From positions 323,110 to 387,109 of the forward strand of contig CAYJQI010000001.1 in assembly GCA_964372485.1 (NCBI GenBank): DNA of 64,000 bases. The letters run 5' to 3'. The notes beneath the pieces are model-generated. The model searched no databases and was not told the DNA's origin. It saw nothing but the letters and a program-made list of their open reading frames with translations. The stretch's first letter is position 1. Every line of letters starts with the position of its first letter. Below are positions 5,354-62,322 of this stretch, piece after piece. This stretch comes from an uncultured archaeon (GTDB taxonomy: Archaea > Aenigmatarchaeota > Aenigmatarchaeia > CG10238-14 > SCSR01). The position numbers and the translations under genes are program-made.

Positions 5354-6867
5354 GACATGGATTTGTTTTTAGCTTAGATACAGCTCTGGCAATTACGATT
5401 GCAATATTTTTAATTGCAGGAACTTTTTATTTTCTCAATGCCAATGAATCTGATGCGTTCAGTAGGTTATACATGACAAAATTTGCAAATGATCTTCTGA
5501 TAACCGCCGATAAAAATGGAACACTCGAAACATTGAACACGTCTTTCATAAGGAATATGTTATCCAATACGATCGCATCAAATTTTGCTTCTAAAATTAC
5601 AATCGATTCATATCAATGCTTTAATCAACAATGTCAAAATTTCAGCAAGACAAACACTACCATAATGTTCATTCCAACTGCAAAAATAGATGTTGTGCTT
5701 GTGTTTGACACATCGGGAAGTATGGATGATGATGGTATAGAGCAGTCTCCAGGAGTTTGTTTTAATCAACGGCAACCTATTTGTGATGCAAAAGAAGCTG
5801 CAAAAGGCTTTATTGATTTATTAGATCCTGTCAATGACAGATCTGGATTGGTTGCTTTTAATACTACTGCCATATTATCCAACCCTCTTACATATAATCA
5901 TGTGTCAATTAAAAATGGGTTGACAAACCTTGTTGCAAGTGGTAATACGGCTATAGGGGACGGAATAAATGTTGCAAATCAAGAACTTCAAAGTAACGGA
6001 AGACAAGATTCAAAATATTTTATAATACTTTTAACAGATGGTATGAACAATCAGGGGCTAGAACCGCTCATGGCTACCGACGATTCTGTGGATATTGGAG
6101 TTCCAATTTATACTATAGGATTAGGTGAAGATGTGAATGTAGAGCAACTTCAAACTATTGCAAATACTTCAGGAGGAAAATATTACTTTGCACCTACCAG
6201 TGATCAATTGGAAGGTATCTATAATGAAATAGCTGCGGATATTTTCGGAGAAGCTGATAATTATGTTATTGCACGGAGAAGTTTCCTTACTTTCGACAGT
6301 AATCGAATCAAATATTTCAACATTGCTGAAATACGAATGTGGTTGAGAGATATAATAACAGAGTTCCATCCAAAAAGTGTTTTCTATCATAGTTTTGAAG
6401 ATTTAGGTTGTGAGGGCGAAAATTGTTTCAATACTACGGTTTGGGATCCAATAGAAAGAGGTGGTGATAATAATGAAGCTACAACGCAAGATGCTCGTTC
6501 TTACACTGGCGATTTTTCTGCTGAACTGGAGGAAGGCGATGAAGGAGAAGTTGCACTTACCACTGCGGCAGGGTTAATAAATTTGGCTGGTTATTCGAGC
6601 TGTACTCTAAAACTATATGTTAATTTAGACAGTAACTGGGAAACGACTGATGATATTTTCCTAGACATATACGATGGCAGTTGGCACTATGGGGTTCTAA
6701 AAATAGACGGTGACCTGATCGATGATGATGAATGGCATCGTTTCAAGTTTTCCTTCACTTCACAGAACTATGTCTTCGATAACAATTTCCGATTAAGGAT
6801 AGATCATGAAGCGAGTGATGATAACGAAGAAGCATTTTACGATGATATAAGAATATTATGTTCCTAG
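5344..6867 (+). CDS. vWA (MIDAS) domain protein with a pilin-like N-terminus. Putative pilus adhesin.
   Basis: MAMRHG|FVFSLDTALAITIAI pilin-like N-terminus. vWA motifs DVVLVFDTSGSMDDD and LLTDGMNN. The track start at 5308 is probably an over-extension. Confidence 0.65.
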   Translation: MAMRHGFVFSLDTALAITIAIFLIAGTFYFLNANESDAFSRLYMTKFANDLLITADKNGTLETLNTSFIRNMLSNTIASNFASKITIDSYQCFNQQCQNFSKTNTTIMFIPTAKIDVVLVFDTSGSMDDDGIEQSPGVCFNQRQPICDAKEAAKGFIDLLDPVNDRSGLVAFNTTAILSNPLTYNHVSIKNGLTNLVASGNTAIGDGINVANQELQSNGRQDSKYFIILLTDGMNNQGLEPLMATDDSVDIGVPIYTIGLGEDVNVEQLQTIANTSGGKYYFAPTSDQLEGIYNEIAADIFGEADNYVIARRSFLTFDSNRIKYFNIAEIRMWLRDIITEFHPKSVFYHSFEDLGCEGENCFNTTVWDPIERGGDNNEATTQDARSYTGDFSAELEEGDEGEVALTTAAGLINLAGYSSCTLKLYVNLDSNWETTDDIFLDIYDGSWHYGVLKIDGDLIDDDEWHRFKFSFTSQNYVFDNNFRLRIDHEASDDNEEAFYDDIRILCS

Positions 6868-6900
6868 GATCTAATAATAAGCAAATACAATAAATAATTT

Positions 6901-7830
6901 ATGAAGGGAATTGTTTCTACGTTAATTATATTGTTAATTTTCACTGTATCTTTGTTACTTGCAATAAGCTTTTCATCTAAAACATTGGAACTGGATGATA
7001 TAGTAATACGAAATCTTGTGCTGGATAAGGTTTATAATACATTTATTTCAATAGAACATGCCGTTCAAGAATTGATGCTCTTTGTATCCCCAAATGGTGG
7101 AATTAATGTTACTATATCTGATCAAAATAACTTTACAATAGTTACTTTCAATGAAACATTACCACGATATGTAAACTCTTCTAAATTTAATGAAGATTTG
7201 GAGAACTTTGAAAGATTCGCAGAAACGAAACTAAACGAAACAAATATAGCAGTTGATTTAATTCTTGATGCTAAATGCCTTTCCTTCGTTATTCAACCAT
7301 ACAATATAACATATACACATAATCCTGGGATAGATTGTTTGAGTGTAAGTGCTCATACAGAAGTTGTTGTAGATCCACAATCCAGTTGGCAGTATGTGAA
7401 TGGATACTCGTTTATTTTCAGGCCAAATGGTAATTTATCTGGAGCATCTATTACAGGATGGAGCGGTCCAGGTTGCAATAAGCCAGGGTTAGGACTCAAT
7501 ATAACTATCGCAGGTAAAGATATCACATTAGGTCCTTCTGCGACTACCAGCAATTACAATAGAATGTGTAGATACAATATTGATGATATATCATGCCCGG
7601 CTGGATTAGGCTATATTCACCTTATCCATAATCAAAATTCCGACGTTACCGATAATGGTGTAGTAGATATAGAAATTCATCCTAATTGCAACATTACGTC
7701 GGCAGTGTCATTGAATTTGACTAAAACAACAGGAAAGGTAAGCGTAGAGTCACTTTTCCAAAAAATAAAGATAAAGGAAACCCTATATAGAATAGAAAAG
7801 AATGACACAATCCGGAATATTGGTGGTTAG
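6901..7830 (+). CDS. Secreted, sequon-rich protein with a pilin-like N-terminal TM segment.
   Basis: MKG|IVSTLIILLIF N-terminus, many N-x-S/T sequons and six Cys. Confidence 0.45.
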   Translation: MKGIVSTLIILLIFTVSLLLAISFSSKTLELDDIVIRNLVLDKVYNTFISIEHAVQELMLFVSPNGGINVTISDQNNFTIVTFNETLPRYVNSSKFNEDLENFERFAETKLNETNIAVDLILDAKCLSFVIQPYNITYTHNPGIDCLSVSAHTEVVVDPQSSWQYVNGYSFIFRPNGNLSGASITGWSGPGCNKPGLGLNITIAGKDITLGPSATTSNYNRMCRYNIDDISCPAGLGYIHLIHNQNSDVTDNGVVDIEIHPNCNITSAVSLNLTKTTGKVSVESLFQKIKIKETLYRIEKNDTIRNIGG

Positions 7831-19156: not shown

Positions 19157-21499
19157 TCATTTGCTTTCAGTAATAGTTTTCTTTTTGCGGCCAAACATTG
19201 AAAAGAATTTTTTCAATCCAGTCGGTTTCTTTTCGTCAGCAGGTTTTGCGAATACATATCCGGTTGCAGTTCTATATCCTTTCTTCGATGGCCAGAACAA
19301 GTACCCTACAAATGCTACGATGACTATAATAAGAATCACTACAACTATTATCCAAACACTCGAAGACACGTTCAATAATCCGTTAGGCTCGGCAGATTCA
19401 ATTCGTGCCTCAATTTCTGCAATGAGAGCTTGGACAATATCCAAAGTTTCTTCTGCGTTGAAATAATCGTTAGCGGTTATGTAATCTTCGGCTTGCTTCA
19501 ATGCAGCTTTCAATTCGTTTAATTTTTGTTCTATAGGCTCAGTATTGTTTGTAGTATTTTTAATTGCGTTAAATTCACTTTCCAATTTACTTGCTTCTAA
19601 TTTGTATAAAATTAATGTATCATTTATCTTAATTTTTGTTTCAGCCGATGGAAGAATTCTTAATGTGAAATCTTTTGTTACTGTTGTGTTTGTGCTACTT
19701 GCAGAGAATTTTGCAGCATAATCCCTTATATCAAATCCTTTTATTGTGAATGTAATTGTATATGAAAGTGTCTGTCCTATTGCAAATTTCTTAGTCGCTT
19801 GATCAATAGTATACCAACTTTTATCGAGATCTAGTATATCCAAAGTTATGTTTTGTTCAACCCCACCAGTGTTTTTAATTTTAATTTCTGTTATATTGGT
19901 TTGGTTCTGGATTATCTCTATCAATTGAGGATATTGGATGAAGCTTATGCTGGCCGATGGAGTGAGTTTTATAGACAATGTATTCTTACTGGTTCCAGTT
20001 GTGTAATTTTGATCTGAAGTGCTGTTACAAAGATATTCATATTTGCTTCCTGCAGTGAAGGTTTGTGTTTCGGGATTACTTACAGACGTCAAGTTTCTGT
20101 ATAGATTCGCTGTTAATCCACTCACTCCTACCGAACAAGTTACAACAGTTTGCACAGGAGTGTCCAATTCCCATTGAGGAGATATTGTAAGAGTTAATGG
20201 TGCAGCGGCTTTATTAATTGTAAATGATGTTGATGGAGTTAAATTGAATACATGATCCTGATATTTTCCAAATATTCTCCATGAATGAGTGCCGGCCGGC
20301 AAGGAAGCATTATAATAATAGTAAAGACTCGAGTTTGTTAAAGTGAAATTTTGAGTTGTACTCCATCCTCCTTCTATGAACGAAGTTACAAAGCCAGGAT
20401 TACTTGCAAATGTTGTGTTGAATATGCTATAAGTTGTGTTTGAAAATGTAAGAGGGATATTTGATGTGGTTGTTGTATAACTTGGAACTGTTGCAACAAA
20501 ATAAGTTGCAGTATTTGTGCTATAGTTAGTATTTGTAGCAACGGTAACAGTATAGTTATGCAATCCTATTGATGTAATCACATCATTTATCGTGTATGTG
20601 TTAGGAACACCAGACGCAACTGTTGTGGTGTTGTCTCTCGTTATCGTAACATTACAATTGGTTTGAGAACATGTTGCATTTGTAGTTATGTTGATTGCGG
20701 TATTGTTTATAGCTGTTATGTTTGTGTTTAATGACCCATTTAGATATACTTTTAATGTGTTGGTCGCTTTCGCTACTAAATATGTGAATTGAATTGTTGA
20801 ATTGAATGTGTTGTTTGTGTCATTTGCATATACTCTCCAAACATACGTACCGGCAGAAAGATCGGAAGTGTTGAAATAATACACACTGCTTGAATTGCTC
20901 ATTGTTTCGTTATGGATGGTAGAGCTTCCTGTTATATTGTGTTCTAACAAAACTTTTGAAATCCCCACATTATCTGTCCATGTTATGTTAAACCAGTAAC
21001 TTTGATTTTGAGCATAACTAGTGTTTGAGCTTGGAGTTGTTGTATTGCTTGAATATGCAGGAGCGATGATGTCAAATAATGTTAATGATACATTGTTGGA
21101 AGTAAATGCACCGGTTATGTCTGTTGTTGATATGTTGAATCCATTACTTCCAGTTGATAGCGGAGTGTCGACGTATATCCAGAAATATTGTGTGGCTCCA
21201 TTTCCAATTAGTCCCAGTATAGAACTATTTGTCCATGCAGGAGAAGATGATGAAGCTGTATAAGGGTTTGTATTTGTTGTACCGGAGCTTCCCGTGAATG
21301 CAAATCCAGGAGGTAGTGTGATATTCAAGTGGGTGATGTTTACAGATCCTGTATTTGCAATAGAAAAGTTGATTAGTTGACTGCTTTGTCCAGATGCAAG
21401 TGTTGTTGGGCTGGAACTAGCTGTAAATGTCGCAGCTAAAGAAGTGCTCACTACGATAAAGAAAGCCAATAAAGAAAAGAGAATAATCAATCTTGTCAT
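19157..21499 (-). CDS. Large cell-surface protein with many N-glycosylation sequons (S-layer or adhesin candidate), C-terminal TM anchor.
   Basis: Signal peptide, T/N/S-rich with dozens of N-x-T/S sequons, internal repeats, and a C-terminal hydrophobic helix followed by a basic tail. Confidence 0.6.
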   Translation of the reverse strand: MTRLIILFSLLAFFIVVSTSLAATFTASSSPTTLASGQSSQLINFSIANTGSVNITHLNITLPPGFAFTGSSGTTNTNPYTASSSSPAWTNSSILGLIGNGATQYFWIYVDTPLSTGSNGFNISTTDITGAFTSNNVSLTLFDIIAPAYSSNTTTPSSNTSYAQNQSYWFNITWTDNVGISKVLLEHNITGSSTIHNETMSNSSSVYYFNTSDLSAGTYVWRVYANDTNNTFNSTIQFTYLVAKATNTLKVYLNGSLNTNITAINNTAINITTNATCSQTNCNVTITRDNTTTVASGVPNTYTINDVITSIGLHNYTVTVATNTNYSTNTATYFVATVPSYTTTTSNIPLTFSNTTYSIFNTTFASNPGFVTSFIEGGWSTTQNFTLTNSSLYYYYNASLPAGTHSWRIFGKYQDHVFNLTPSTSFTINKAAAPLTLTISPQWELDTPVQTVVTCSVGVSGLTANLYRNLTSVSNPETQTFTAGSKYEYLCNSTSDQNYTTGTSKNTLSIKLTPSASISFIQYPQLIEIIQNQTNITEIKIKNTGGVEQNITLDILDLDKSWYTIDQATKKFAIGQTLSYTITFTIKGFDIRDYAAKFSASSTNTTVTKDFTLRILPSAETKIKINDTLILYKLEASKLESEFNAIKNTTNNTEPIEQKLNELKAALKQAEDYITANDYFNAEETLDIVQALIAEIEARIESAEPNGLLNVSSSVWIIVVVILIIVIVAFVGYLFWPSKKGYRTATGYVFAKPADEKKPTGLKKFFSMFGRKKKTITESK

Positions 21500-22098: not shown

Positions 22099-22743
22099 TT
22101 GTGCCAGATGCTTAAATCATATATGAAATCCACTAAATTGCCTGTTTTCAAAACATTGAGTGAAGGATTTGAACTGTTGAAAAATTATCCTATTATATTC
22201 GTCCCTGTGTTCATATCGACAGTTGCCTCCTTTTTGACACCTGATGATTTTCTGATATCAATTGCGAGTGCTCTTGTTCAGGGGTTTCTTTACCTGGTAA
22301 CTATAGTAATGACTTGGCAGGCGCTTACAAAAAGAAAAATTTTAATTGGGGATGCAGCTGAACTTTCACTTAAACGAGTTCCTCAGGTAATATTAGGTAC
22401 TATTCTTTTCTTCATTGCAATTGTAGCTGGTTTCATTGCGTTGATAATACCTGGAATTTTCCTTTCAATAAAGCTGGTTTTCTTCCAGTATTTTATACTT
22501 TTTGAAAATGTTGGAGTAATGGATTCTTTCAAGAAAAGTTGGAAAGCTACTGATAAAAATTGGTGGAGAATGTTTGCACTTAATTTGCTGCTTGTTATAT
22601 CCTTTATACCTGCGGGTGTAATATCACTTCCTGTAGCTTTTGTCAGTTCTATAGTTAGTATCATGTTATTGTCTGTACTTACAACAGTTGTTTCCGCTTG
22701 GTACACAACTTCTTTGGTTGTTGCTTATAAGAAATTGAGGTAG
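22099..22743 (+). CDS. Polytopic membrane protein.
   Basis: Four to five hydrophobic helices. Confidence 0.45.
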   Translation: MCQMLKSYMKSTKLPVFKTLSEGFELLKNYPIIFVPVFISTVASFLTPDDFLISIASALVQGFLYLVTIVMTWQALTKRKILIGDAAELSLKRVPQVILGTILFFIAIVAGFIALIIPGIFLSIKLVFFQYFILFENVGVMDSFKKSWKATDKNWWRMFALNLLLVISFIPAGVISLPVAFVSSIVSIMLLSVLTTVVSAWYTTSLVVAYKKLR

Positions 22744-22836
22744 TGTCCCCGATGGGATTTGAACCCACAACCTCATCCTTAGGACGGATTTGAACTACTT
22801 TCGTATTCGCTCTGGTCCAGGTTGAGCTACGGGGAC
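22744..22836 (-). tRNA. tRNA-Arg (anticodon CCU) with a roughly 17-nt intron at a non-canonical position (D-arm / anticodon-stem junction).
   Basis: Acceptor GTCCCCG/CGGGGAC, D-arm GCTC..GAGC, anticodon loop GTCCTAA, T-arm GTGGG-TTCAAAT-CCCAT, discriminator A. The 93-nt length requires an insertion after position 26. Confidence 0.7.
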
Positions 22837-25799: not shown

Positions 25800-27041
25800 C
25801 TATTTTAATAAAGAAACAATCTTGCTTAACACTAACTCCTTTTGTTCACCAGTTTTCATATCTTTCAGTTTAAACTTTTTCTTTTTCAACTCTTCTTTCC
25901 CCACAATCAGAACATAAGGAATTCCAGAAGAACTCGCATACTCCAATTGTTTAACAAAACTTCTGTTCATTAGATCAATTTGAACATTTAAATCCTTTCT
26001 CAAATCATTCGCAATTTTTATTACATCATCTTTTACATCATCATTAACATTTGCGATGAAAACTTTTGTGTTGCTTTTTTCATCCTTGAACATTTTATTC
26101 TCTTTCATAACTTCCAAAATACGATCCAATCCCAATGATATACCAGTTGCTGGCATTTCTTGTCCACCGATTGCTTTAATCAAATTATCGTATCTTCCAC
26201 CACCACCACAGGATACTTTGGCACCAAGATTAATTTCAAAAACCACCGAAGTGTAATATTCCAATCCACGTACAAGTGAGATATCGAATTTCAATTTCTT
26301 TTCAATTCCAAATTTCTTCGCAAGTTTGAATAATTCTTCCAATTCAGTTTTACCTTCACTATTAGGAAGTTTACTTAATTCATTTGACTTCAATACTGCA
26401 ACGATTTTAGTAGTTTCTAATCCTTTAGTTTTCAATTCTGCTTCCACACCTTCAAATCCAATTTTATCTAACTTGTCAATTGTTCTGAAAACATCAATTA
26501 TTCTTTCCTTTTTGACAATTTTTTCAAATTCATTCTGGAGTAATTTTCTGCTATTAACTCGTATCTGATAATTTTTGAATCCTAACTTGTCAAGAATTTC
26601 GCATATTGCAGTTAAACATTCTACATCTGAAATTAGAGAAGTACTTCCAACAACATCAATATCTGATTGCCAGAATTCTCTGAATCTCATGCTACCTGGT
26701 TGATCATATCTCCAGACTTTATCAATTGCATACCGTTTGAATGGTTTTGGAAATGATCCAGATGAAACAACTCGCGAAAGAGGCATTGTTAGATCAAATC
26801 TCAATCCTAACTCTCGGTCGGACTTGTCCTTGAAATAATAAATTTCATCTTTTACCGCTTCACCCAATCCACCTTTGGCTGAGAGCAGTTCAAAATTCTC
26901 AAAAGCAGGTGTTATCAACGGGCTGAATCCGTATTTTTCATAAACTTCTCTACAAATTTTTATTATTTGTTGTAATTTGCTTGCATCTTCTGGTAACAAA
27001 TCTCTTGTACCTTTTGGAGGTTGGAAGTTCATGTTCCTCAA
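25800..27041 (-). CDS. hisS: Histidyl-tRNA synthetase.
   Basis: Class II aaRS. N-terminal PKGTRDLLPED and an anticodon-binding C-terminus. Confidence 0.9.
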   Translation of the reverse strand: MRNMNFQPPKGTRDLLPEDASKLQQIIKICREVYEKYGFSPLITPAFENFELLSAKGGLGEAVKDEIYYFKDKSDRELGLRFDLTMPLSRVVSSGSFPKPFKRYAIDKVWRYDQPGSMRFREFWQSDIDVVGSTSLISDVECLTAICEILDKLGFKNYQIRVNSRKLLQNEFEKIVKKERIIDVFRTIDKLDKIGFEGVEAELKTKGLETTKIVAVLKSNELSKLPNSEGKTELEELFKLAKKFGIEKKLKFDISLVRGLEYYTSVVFEINLGAKVSCGGGGRYDNLIKAIGGQEMPATGISLGLDRILEVMKENKMFKDEKSNTKVFIANVNDDVKDDVIKIANDLRKDLNVQIDLMNRSFVKQLEYASSSGIPYVLIVGKEELKKKKFKLKDMKTGEQKELVLSKIVSLLK

Positions 27042-44767: not shown

Positions 44768-44976
44768 CTAAGAAACCTCCTTATTCAGAAATCGGTTAAG
44801 GGTCCTCTGCAACCACTTGGCAGAATCCTCCCCTATTGCCCCAAAACGAGCAACAGAGGTAGTATCAATACATTCAAGAGTAGAATAATAATGTTAGAAT
44901 CAAGATTCAATAATTGAGTTGGTCCCAAATTCATCAATAATCACTGATTTTATAAAACTCATTAAAACTTTAAAAC

Positions 44977-44984
44977 TTATAAAT
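44977..44984 (+). promoter_or_regulatory. Putative TATA box for tRNA-Arg(UCU).
   Basis: TTATAAAT about 20 nt upstream of the tRNA 5' end. Confidence 0.3.
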
Positions 44985-44999
44985 ATTATTGAAATCAAT

Positions 45000-45088
45000 G
45001 CTCCCGTAGCTCAACTTGGATAGAGCAAATATTATAGCTCAATTCCCTTCTAAGGAAGAGGTTGAGGGTTCAAATCCCTCCGGGGGCA
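45000..45088 (+). tRNA. tRNA-Arg (anticodon UCU) with a roughly 14-nt intron at a non-canonical position.
   Basis: Acceptor GCTCCCG/CGGGGGC, D-arm, anticodon loop CTTCTAA, T-arm GAGGG-TTCAAAT-CCCTC. The 89-nt length needs an insertion after position 26. Confidence 0.7.
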
Positions 45089-45341
45089 TATTTATACAAA
45101 TGGATAAATATTATTATGAATCCTTTACGCTATCTTGATGTTCACCGAGGCGATAATTTTTTCCAAATTGCATTGAAATTAAATGTACCAGGAAGTTATT
45201 TGTATAACGTAAGAAGACTTGTTGAACCAACATGGACTAGTCGAAGTATGGGATATTCTGGTGCTGCACTTTTAGAATTGCCTAAATTAGGTTTATTGTG
45301 TGTATTTTTGGGTTGGCACAATCTTTAAACTATAGAAAACT

Positions 45342-61258: not shown

Positions 61259-61609
61259 TTAATTTACATTTAAGCTTTTTATCGTTCCTGACACTTTGAG
61301 TATCTTGAAAATTATCCTACTTTCACCTAGTCTGGTTATCAATCCCAGTCCTGCGATTACTTTGGGAACTGATTTATTGTTGCATCTTATTACACCCGAT
61401 TGTTCTTTTTCATTCCACAGATTTTTTACTAACCATATCGACATTTGACTAGTTCCCAATTCACCATAAAAATCTAATAATGTCGACCAAATACTTGCTT
61501 CTAAATCAGAATATGAAATTGGTTCTTCGGAAATTACTTTAAATGAAATATACCTTTCCTTCTCTCGTAATGTTGGTGAGAGGATTTTTAATTTTTCTTG
61601 TTGTTTCAT
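61259..61609 (-). CDS. rnp2: RNase P protein subunit Pop5 (Rnp2).
   Basis: RYISFKV...VSGTIK motif. Confidence 0.7.
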   Translation of the reverse strand: MKQQEKLKILSPTLREKERYISFKVISEEPISYSDLEASIWSTLLDFYGELGTSQMSIWLVKNLWNEKEQSGVIRCNNKSVPKVIAGLGLITRLGESRIIFKILKVSGTIKSLNVN

Positions 61610-62322
61610 TTCACTACCTTAACTCCAGGTAATATCCATTTTTTAGATTTTCTTTCTTTTGATTGTTTTAAAATATTTTCTGGAATTTTTGATGCAGAGT
61701 TTTCTCCTTCATCTAAATCTAGACCTAGTTGATTTGATATGGATATCATCACTTGTGGATCTCGCAATTCGAAATGAGAAATTGCACCAGAACACAAAAT
61801 TATTGGTGCTTTGAATTTTTTAGCTAATTTGATATTGTTTAAAATATTTTTCATAATGAGATTTCTTGTACGTTTACTTGCTAGAACTATTTCTCGGAAA
61901 TTTACTTCAATTGCCACATTATTTTCTGCAGCAGATTTAACTAGAACATGATTTAGTCCAGAATCATTTCTATTATTTTCAGGATGAGTTAATATGTCAA
62001 CCTCTGGAGTTTCGCATGCTAATCTGTTCATTTTTAAATCCCCTCCTTGTACTAAAAGTACATCAAACATTTTCCTTCTTTCAACAAGCTTGTGCAATTC
62101 TTTCGGATGTCTTGCTTCAAATCCAAGATAAATATCAATTCCAACTTTTCTACTGACCTTCGCAATATCTTCTTTGAGTTTTTTTATTTGATCGTCATTC
62201 TCAAAATATTCGGCAAAACAAATTCCTGTATATCCAAGTTCTTTTGCAGTTGATGCCAATTGTTCTAAACTACTATGTCCACCGCTAAATGCACTGTGAA
62301 CATGAAGATCGAAATATCGCAT
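61606..62322 (-). CDS. rnp3: RNase P protein subunit Rpp30 (Rnp3), PHP domain.
   Basis: FDLHVHS start and a TIM-barrel PHP pattern. Confidence 0.75.
   Translation of the reverse strand: MRYFDLHVHSAFSGGHSSLEQLASTAKELGYTGICFAEYFENDDQIKKLKEDIAKVSRKVGIDIYLGFEARHPKELHKLVERRKMFDVLLVQGGDLKMNRLACETPEVDILTHPENNRNDSGLNHVLVKSAAENNVAIEVNFREIVLASKRTRNLIMKNILNNIKLAKKFKAPIILCSGAISHFELRDPQVMISISNQLGLDLDEGENSASKIPENILKQSKERKSKKWILPGVKVVK

Follow-up and report, generated by a model that had tools for sequence, protein, structure and literature searches.

A tRNA-Arg(UCU) gene of an Aenigmatarchaeota archaeon with a probable 14-nt protein-spliced intron at position 27/28

Results

Two interrupted tRNA-Arg genes in the window

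We analyzed a 64-kb stretch of DNA, which is referred to as the window in its whole length. Its tRNA-Arg(UCU) gene lies at 45000-45088 on the plus strand, is 89 nt long including the discriminator A and carries a 14-nt insert, as the preliminary description of this DNA had stated. The gene reads GCTCCCG TA GCTC AACTTGGATA GAGC AA ATATTATAGCTCAA TTCC CTTCTAA GGAAG AGGTT GAGGG TTCAAAT CCCTC CGGGGGC A. The 5' exon (45000-45028, plus strand, positions 1-27) holds the acceptor strand, the D-arm with A20 and positions 26-27; its last 6 nt are the helix strand H (GAGC, 45023-45026) and AA, the first two nucleotides of a bulge. The intron, ATATTATAGCTCAA (14 nt, 45029-45042, plus strand), is placed at position 27/28 by the BHB rule. 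The 3' exon (45043-45088, plus strand, positions 28-73) contains the rest of the anticodon arm with the anticodon TCT at 45049-45051, the variable loop AGGTT, the T-arm, the acceptor strand and the discriminator A; CCA is not encoded in the gene. Canonical introns of archaeal and eukaryal tRNAs interrupt the gene at position 37/38, directly after the nucleotide that follows the anticodon. The UCU insert does not occupy that position: the anticodon loop CTTCTAA is unbroken and the insert stands between the D-stem and the anticodon stem. When the 14 nt are removed, ARAGORN recognizes a canonical 75-nt tRNA-Arg(tct), which keeps the four stems, the T-loop, G18 G19, A20 and C35.

The second gene, tRNA-Arg(CCU), is encoded on the minus strand at 22836-22744 and carries, at the same position, a 17-nt insert built in the same way, which bears out the earlier claim that the two tRNA-Arg genes share their architecture. 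ARAGORN on the spliced gene and the covariance model R1 delimit its 5' exon (22807-22836, minus strand, positions 1-27, ending GAGC GA) and its 3' exon (22744-22789, minus strand, positions 28-73, anticodon CCT), and the BHB rule together with folding sets the 17-nt intron ATACGAAAGTAGTTCAA at 22790-22806 (minus strand, position 27/28). The parts of this intron are a hairpin TAC-GAAA-GTA, the helix strand H' GTTC, which pairs with GAGC through one G-U pair, and AA. Removal of the 17 nt gives a canonical tRNA-Arg(cct) according to ARAGORN.

The covariance model R1 was trained on 26 Arg(YCU) sequences of relatives, either intronless or spliced computationally, and both window genes as well as the two other genes with an intron at 27/28 were left out of the training set. 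Exactly two loci were matched by R1 in the 64 kb, both over the full length: 45000-45088 with 68.8 bits (E 3e-17) and 22744-22836 with 62.9 bits. The preliminary description had considered that covariance models might fail on the UCU gene; R1 finds the gene whole, and together with the ARAGORN call on the spliced sequence this confirms the proposal of a tRNA-Arg(UCU) with a non-canonical intron. The R1 alignment (Infernal) sets the insertion in the D-loop, and the D-stem is then mismatched. We rejected this placement as a convenience of the alignment, since the placements from 25/26 to 27/28 keep a 4/4 D-stem and only 27/28 fits the BHB register. Thus R1 confirms the gene only, and the exact position of the intron is based on the BHB rule and the D-stem pairing. 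The Logan assembly of run ERR3478686 (L001), which is a separate one, contains the same 90 nt. Directly downstream of the UCU gene there is a 70-aa ORF (45116-45328, plus strand), which is a gene call in the Logan assembly and has no Pfam hit recorded; a longer TTG-started reading of it (45062-45328), overlapping the 3' end of the tRNA gene, is probably spurious.

Host and surroundings

The 883-aa LeuRS encoded beside the UCU gene has its next relatives, at 60-77% identity, in proteins named Candidatus Aenigmatarchaeota/Aenigmarchaeota, and the geranylgeranyl-reductase homologues are likewise so named; the LeuRS relatives therefore indicate that the host is a DPANN archaeon. The window has a G+C content of about 35% and encodes an archaeal-type PheRS alpha/beta and RNase P protein subunits. 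The genes of the subunits Rpp30 and Rpp14 are situated at the right end of the window (61606-62322, minus strand, and the adjacent gene), and an Rpr2/Rpp21 homologue (L220 2082-2393) is found about 8 kb further, where it adjoins a tRNA-Pro(UGG) gene of the same genome that has no intron.

Other observations concern the wider surroundings. The region 19157-21499 (minus strand) encodes a 780-aa protein, very rich in Asn, Thr and Ser, in which N-x-S/T sequons are numerous, the N-terminal segment is signal-like and a membrane anchor lies at the C terminus; only partial homologues were found, in L061, L079 and L090, and it is probably a glycosylated surface protein. A match to the alpha-proteobacterial SAM riboswitch at 26737-26799 (plus strand) is weak, its 20.7 bits (E 2.7) falling short of the gathering score of 36, and is most likely due to chance. 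In L019 (uncultured archaeon, CAYYVK010000005.1) the archaeal SSU rRNA match at 5819-7787 spans 1969 nt against a model of 1478 positions, which implies insertions of about 0.5 kb in the 16S gene, possibly rRNA introns.

The splicing motif and the position of the intron

According to the BHB rule (Marck & Grosjean 2003, summarised in PMC4090602, PMC3239211) a 4-bp helix fixes both splice sites, each being 2 nt 3' of one of its strands, and therefore the 5' exon should end with H plus 2 nt and the intron with H' plus 2 nt. The placements 25/26, 26/27 and 27/28 of the 14-nt insert all yield an identical mature RNA, and 27/28 alone satisfies the rule. The earlier parse, in which the insert begins AATA and ends TCA, is a valid 26/27 placement with the same mature RNA, but the BHB rule selects 27/28. 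At this position the D-stem 3' strand GAGC (positions 22-25) faces GCTC (45037-45040) with 4/4 pairs; the complementarity of the two segments had been noticed before, and it represents the central 4-bp splicing helix. The CCU helix GAGC/GTTC also has 4/4 pairs at 27/28. The 5' splice site falls inside a 3-nt bulge, which is AA|A in the UCU gene (A45029 being the third nucleotide) and GA|A in the CCU gene. A mini-hairpin, TA-TTA-TA (45030-45036), abuts H' in the UCU gene with just two A-U pairs, the CCU mini-hairpin has 3 bp and a GAAA loop, and AA (45041-45042) stand before the UCU 3' splice site. In the folding calculations the GAGC/GCUC helix is present in the UCU centroid, and helix, bulge and hairpin are all present in the CCU fragment.

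The UCU gene consequently combines an archaeal host, a cloverleaf upon removal of the insert, a 4-bp helix in register and a 3-nt 5' bulge closed by h', as is expected of a BHB-type intron. The strict hBHBh' motif is the substrate of the typical alpha4/alpha'2 EndA. Folding revealed neither a closed 3-nt bulge nor a contiguous outer helix h at the UCU 3' splice site: the best outer pairing, GGA(18-20)/TCC(29-31), spans a 2x3 or 3x3 internal loop, an alternative outer register, GGAU/AUUC, is without a bulge, and the local fold z-scores are weak (about -1.6). The outer helix of a strict BHB was not convincing and was rejected, and the motif was therefore classed as relaxed, that is HBh'- or bulge-helix-loop (BHL)-like. 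As the 3' strand of the D-stem serves as H, only one of the two, D-stem or splicing helix, can form at a time.

The significance of the pattern was estimated with 100,000 composition-preserving shuffles of each insert, a shuffle being counted as a pass when it had the 4-bp helix in register and a hairpin of at least 2 bp. Only 280/100,000 shuffles (0.28%) passed for the UCU insert and 44/100,000 (0.044%) for the CCU insert, and the pattern of the inserts exceeds chance. The parser itself was validated on tRNA-Arg(YCU) genes of DPANN and Thermoproteales, collected with a pattern scan in which each species was represented by one genome. Helices with 4/4 pairs were found under the same rule in 86 of the 123 introns parsed, which validates the rule on independent genes, and AA was the commonest pair after H' among these 4/4-helix introns (53/86). 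The 27/28 introns known to us from this analysis (both window genes, L049 and L159) share one layout of H GAGC, 3-nt bulge, hairpin, H' G(C/T)TC and AA; their hairpin stems differ (TA/TA, TAC/GTA, TG/CA and GAA/TTC) yet stay paired.

Group I introns in tRNA genes of bacteria and plastids have a ribozyme core of about 200 nt or more and are located in the anticodon loop. A self-splicing group I intron was rejected for the UCU gene, as its insert has 14 nt and lies outside the anticodon loop, and no intron family was matched by Rfam in the 64-kb window.

Orthologous genes in related genomes

The UCU gene is situated between the LeuRS gene and a MinD/ParA gene, an arrangement kept in four related genomes. 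At the syntenic position L004 has an intronless tRNA-Arg(tct) (Rfam 64.1 bits, full length), L005 has a gene with a 14-nt D-loop intron, and L002 and L003 have genes with a 14-15-nt intron at 30/31 and a canonical 37/38 intron, the 30/31 helix being CAGC/GTTG in L002 and CAAC/GTTG in L003. The CCU gene adjoins the geranylgeranyl-reductase gene, and in the orthologues at that place introns are present at 27/28 and 37/38 in L049, at 37/38 only in L215 and L216, at 29/30 and about 43/44 in L218, at 22/23 in L055 and at 29/30 in L075. Several introns per gene were seen in L002, L003, L022 and L066. The latter two carry tRNA-Arg(UCU) genes of 116-118 nt, at 2095-2193 in L066 (CAYXOT010000010.1) and at 7401-7501 in L022 (CAYJVM010000007.1), which appear to have three mini-introns each, D-loop plus 30/31 plus 37/38 in L066 and 30/31 plus 37/38 plus about 43/44 in L022; the boundaries of the D-loop and 43/44 inserts fit the BHB register poorly (2/4 pairs).

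Position 27/28 is rare. The 4/4-helix introns were found 24 times at 30/31, 20 times at 37/38 and 10 times at 22/23, and 27/28 was found, among the parsed genes and the metagenome matches listed, only in both window genes, in L049 and in the metagenome contig L159. The pattern used for the metagenome scan, GYTYAANNCCNTYCTA, also matches ordinary T-arm/acceptor sequence, GTTCAAATCCCTTCTA; among the matches listed only L159 is a true 27/28 tRNA-Arg(CCU), and the others are unrelated bacterial or other tRNAs.

The preliminary description had recorded an A:G mismatch at 27:43 in both Arg genes, which is indeed present in both sequences, and had taken it as a hint that the exon boundary might be wrong. 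Such mismatches occur in relatives with and without introns: 27:43 is G:A in L004, L002 and L005, A:G in L003 and A:A in L049, while it is C:G in L159 and L215. The suspicion about the boundary is thus not upheld, and the mismatch is best regarded as a trait of the lineage rather than an error of parsing.

Discussion

Our data imply that the UCU gene encodes the AGA-reading tRNA of an Aenigmatarchaeota archaeon and is interrupted by a 14-nt protein-spliced intron, and we estimate the probability of this reading at about 0.88. In the precursor, GAGC (22-25) would pair with the intronic GCTC and not with its usual D-stem partner, which would give the 4-bp central helix of the BHB. Positions 26 and 27 together with the first intron base would form the 3-nt bulge with the 5' splice site, the 2-bp mini-hairpin would be stacked on the central helix, and the 3' splice site, after the two A's following GCTC, would lie in an unclosed single-stranded stretch beside the anticodon stem. 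EndA would then cleave at 27|i1 and i14|28, in each case two nucleotides beyond the 3' end of a strand of the central helix, an RtcB-type ligase would join the exons, and the D-stem could subsequently form to give a normal cloverleaf. The CCU gene would work in the same way with its 17-nt intron. We infer the cleavage, the ligation, the enzyme type and the use of a promoter; the putative promoter, of the archaeal BRE/TATA type, is an A/T-rich upstream block, CATTAAAACTTTAAAACTTATAAATATTATTG (44960-44991, plus strand), which is conserved in an alignment of the syntenic orthologues.

Neither an EndA catalytic motif, in the six-frame translation, nor an RtcB gene was found in the 64-kb window. 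The EndAs reported from DPANN are of the L3-loop alpha4, (alpha-beta)2 and epsilon2 types (PMC5829648), and for relaxed motifs the literature calls for an EndA that has a specificity loop (PMC5829648, PMC12397907). DPANN are known for interrupted tRNA genes and for splicing endonucleases of broad specificity (PMC5829648, PMC3239211), and non-canonical BHB introns of the relaxed kind as well as EndAs of broad specificity are well attested in both DPANN and TACK archaea (PMC5829648, PMC3239211, PMC12397907, PMC4090602). The sole EndA among the loci that we fetched is a 397-aa plus-strand ORF of L083 (Candidatus Micrarchaeota, CAYYPF010000036.1), a three-unit splicing endonuclease near the epsilon2 EndA of ARMAN-2 (PDB 4fz2, E 1e-97), which says nothing on the EndA of the window organism. 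It shares an 8-kb stretch with a tRNA-Arg gene bearing a long D-loop insert that the parser did not resolve.

It could be argued that the insert is not spliced at all, the UCU gene being either a pseudogene in decay or the source of a tRNA that carries an extra arm, and that another copy of the gene reads AGA. Room for such a copy exists, as the inspected part of the genome is 64 kb plus about 9 kb of flank out of roughly 0.79 Mb. However, AGA makes up 58.7% of the 656 Arg codons in 37 window ORFs and is the main arginine codon, so the UCU gene must be functional, and the AGA usage, the intact exon features and the conserved upstream block all indicate, as far as can be judged from sequence, that it is. 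The gene is found at the very site, between LeuRS and MinD/ParA, where the relatives keep their tRNA-Arg(UCU), its upstream block is conserved, and the stems, T-loop, G18 G19, A20 and C35 are intact once the insert is removed. The insert also keeps to the BHB register, with a shuffle p of about 0.003, and the orthologues have their inserts elsewhere or have none, therefore the inserts do not belong to the mature structure. Thus we regard a retained insert as highly improbable.

The idea that the locus is a different tRNA without any intron comes from the gene-finding programs. ARAGORN calls a tRNA-Ala(agc) with a long variable arm at 44999-45089, and a tRNA-Phe(aaa) at 22743-22836, and Rfam aligns 45021-45080 to positions 8-63 of the tRNA model with 35.2 bits by using GAGC...GCTC as a D-arm. 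The Ala fold, however, rests on a weak, mismatched A-U anticodon stem and relegates a perfect Arg anticodon arm to the role of a variable arm, whereas the partial match of Rfam lacks the acceptor stem and its D-loop has no GG. Moreover, the intronless orthologue in L004 is unambiguously a tRNA-Arg(tct), and R1 matches the UCU gene as Arg over the full length. Therefore, the intron-free fold whose possibility had been raised earlier amounts to program artefacts, both for the Ala and Phe calls and for the partial Rfam match, and a different tRNA is scarcely plausible. That the insert is an artefact of sequencing or assembly, for instance a local duplication of the 8-mer TAGCTCAA, which is present twice in the UCU gene, can practically be dismissed, because the separate Logan assembly has the same sequence, the CCU gene, L049 and L159 have the same design with other sequences, and the repeat is to be expected from the mimicry of the D-stem 5' strand by H' and from AA being the commonest pair after H'.

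The putative intron at 27/28 raises the question of how two paralogues came to share it. The 27/28 intron is present in the CCU genes of two other genomes (L049, L159), and among UCU genes in the window genome only. In its 5' half, GTAGCTCAACTTGGATAGAGCAA (positions 7-27), the UCU gene does not differ from the L049 CCU gene, and it has the A15/U48 combination typical of CCU genes. It could be that gene conversion or intron transposition recently carried the intron from the CCU to the UCU member of the AGR-decoding tRNA-Arg paralogues, but we consider such a transfer rather unlikely. The same low likelihood attaches to a further idea, that H', being a copy of the D-stem 5' strand, serves as a folding switch and keeps the D-arm open until splicing. 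Over 75-nt sequences the exons of the window UCU gene and those of the UCU orthologues are 88% identical, against 87% for the L049 CCU gene, and these identities are too close and the sequences too short for a choice among gene conversion, transposition and independent gain. Of the two copies of TAGCTCAA in the UCU gene, one occupies exon positions 8-15 and the other the intron 3' end; the CCU intron ends in GTAGTTCAA, compared with GTAGCTCAA in the exon. We did not take the repeat as a sign of duplication, although a local duplication may have contributed to it: it is mostly explained by the necessity for H' to mimic the D-stem 5' strand, GCTC being forced by pairing and AA being the usual ending, so that only the TA is left unexplained.

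The preliminary description had further suggested that the two Arg isoacceptors represent a lineage-specific intron class. Our analysis speaks against this notion. The inserts obey the ordinary BHB rule, as do 86 of the 123 introns parsed in tRNA-Arg(YCU) genes of DPANN and Thermoproteales, for which non-canonical relaxed BHB introns are well documented (PMC4090602, PMC5829648, PMC3239211, PMC8450103). Orthologues at the same genomic positions are intronless or interrupted elsewhere, and the tRNA-Pro(UGG) of the same genome has no intron; therefore the feature is neither genome-wide nor fixed in the lineage. Position 27/28 is better described, on the comparison of these genes, as a single state within a pattern of mini-introns that changes rapidly. 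The states observed among the orthologues are none, D-loop, 22/23, 27/28, 29/30, 30/31, 37/38 and about 43/44, which points to a very fast turnover of the mini-intron position in one orthologous tRNA gene.

The findings carry a warning for annotation. At the orthologous intron-bearing genes of L002, L003 and L005 (3/4 orthologues) ARAGORN made no call, and the Rfam scores of intron-bearing Arg genes are 27-46 bits against 64 for an intronless one. Because ARAGORN miscalls or misses such genes and Rfam matches them partially, annotations of DPANN genomes could list the tRNA for the most used Arg codon as missing or assign it wrongly, and incomplete tRNA sets of exactly such kind were described by Kaneta et al. 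(PMC5829648). Otherwise the scientific gain is modest: the relaxed BHB introns on record are extended by the rarely seen 27/28 position and by one more DPANN phylum.

Non-canonical BHB introns have been described in Crenarchaeota (Thermoproteales), Thaumarchaeota and Nanoarchaeota, and their known positions are 20/21, 22/23, 25/26, 29/30, 30/31, 45/46, 53/54, 56/57, 59/60 "etc." (PMC4090602, PMC8450103). The window introns resemble them in being short, seemingly protein-spliced and outside the anticodon loop, in having a 4-bp central helix with the splice sites 2 nt 3' of each strand, and in that the position varies between close relatives and several introns per gene are possible. They differ by their host, which belongs to the Aenigmatarchaeota (DPANN), and by their lengths of 14-17 nt, which are at the short end of the range. 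Position 27/28 is absent from the explicit list of the review, which ends with "etc." (PMC4090602, PMC8450103).

A closer parallel within DPANN is the pre-tRNA-Cys(GCA) of ARMAN-2 (Micrarchaeota), whose 13-nt relaxed hBH/BHL intron at 59/60 is cut in vitro by the epsilon2 EndA (PMC3239211, PMC12397907). The window intron is a mini-intron of similar length in a DPANN host, and in both cases only one of the splice sites sits in a proper bulge, the other being in an open loop, so that a broad-specificity endonuclease would be needed; the ARMAN-2 intron is, however, in the T-loop, whereas that of the window gene is at the junction of the D-stem and the anticodon stem. The pre-tRNA-Glu(UUC) of Methanopyrus kandleri has an HBh' intron in the D-loop, which is cut inefficiently by the EndA of this organism (PMC5829648). 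Here the likeness is in the relaxed HBh' motif built with D-arm nucleotides, due to which the formation of the motif competes with the folding of the D-arm, although the phylum and the position are different.

The nearest counterparts are the 30/31 and 29/30 mini-introns in the orthologous Arg genes of other Aenigmatarchaeota, Woesearchaeota and Micrarchaeota. They have the same succession of A, short hairpin, H' and AA, similar lengths, and an H that overlaps the D-stem 3' end (C25 A26 G/A27 C28 for 30/31). In contrast to the 27/28 introns, their register is shifted by 2-3 nt and their H' is G(C/T)TG, while the H' at 27/28 is G(C/T)TC. Taking these comparisons together, the window introns are to be assigned, on the strength of their predicted motif, to the archaeal EndA-dependent non-canonical type with a relaxed BHB, in which they represent a rare variant of position and not a new class.
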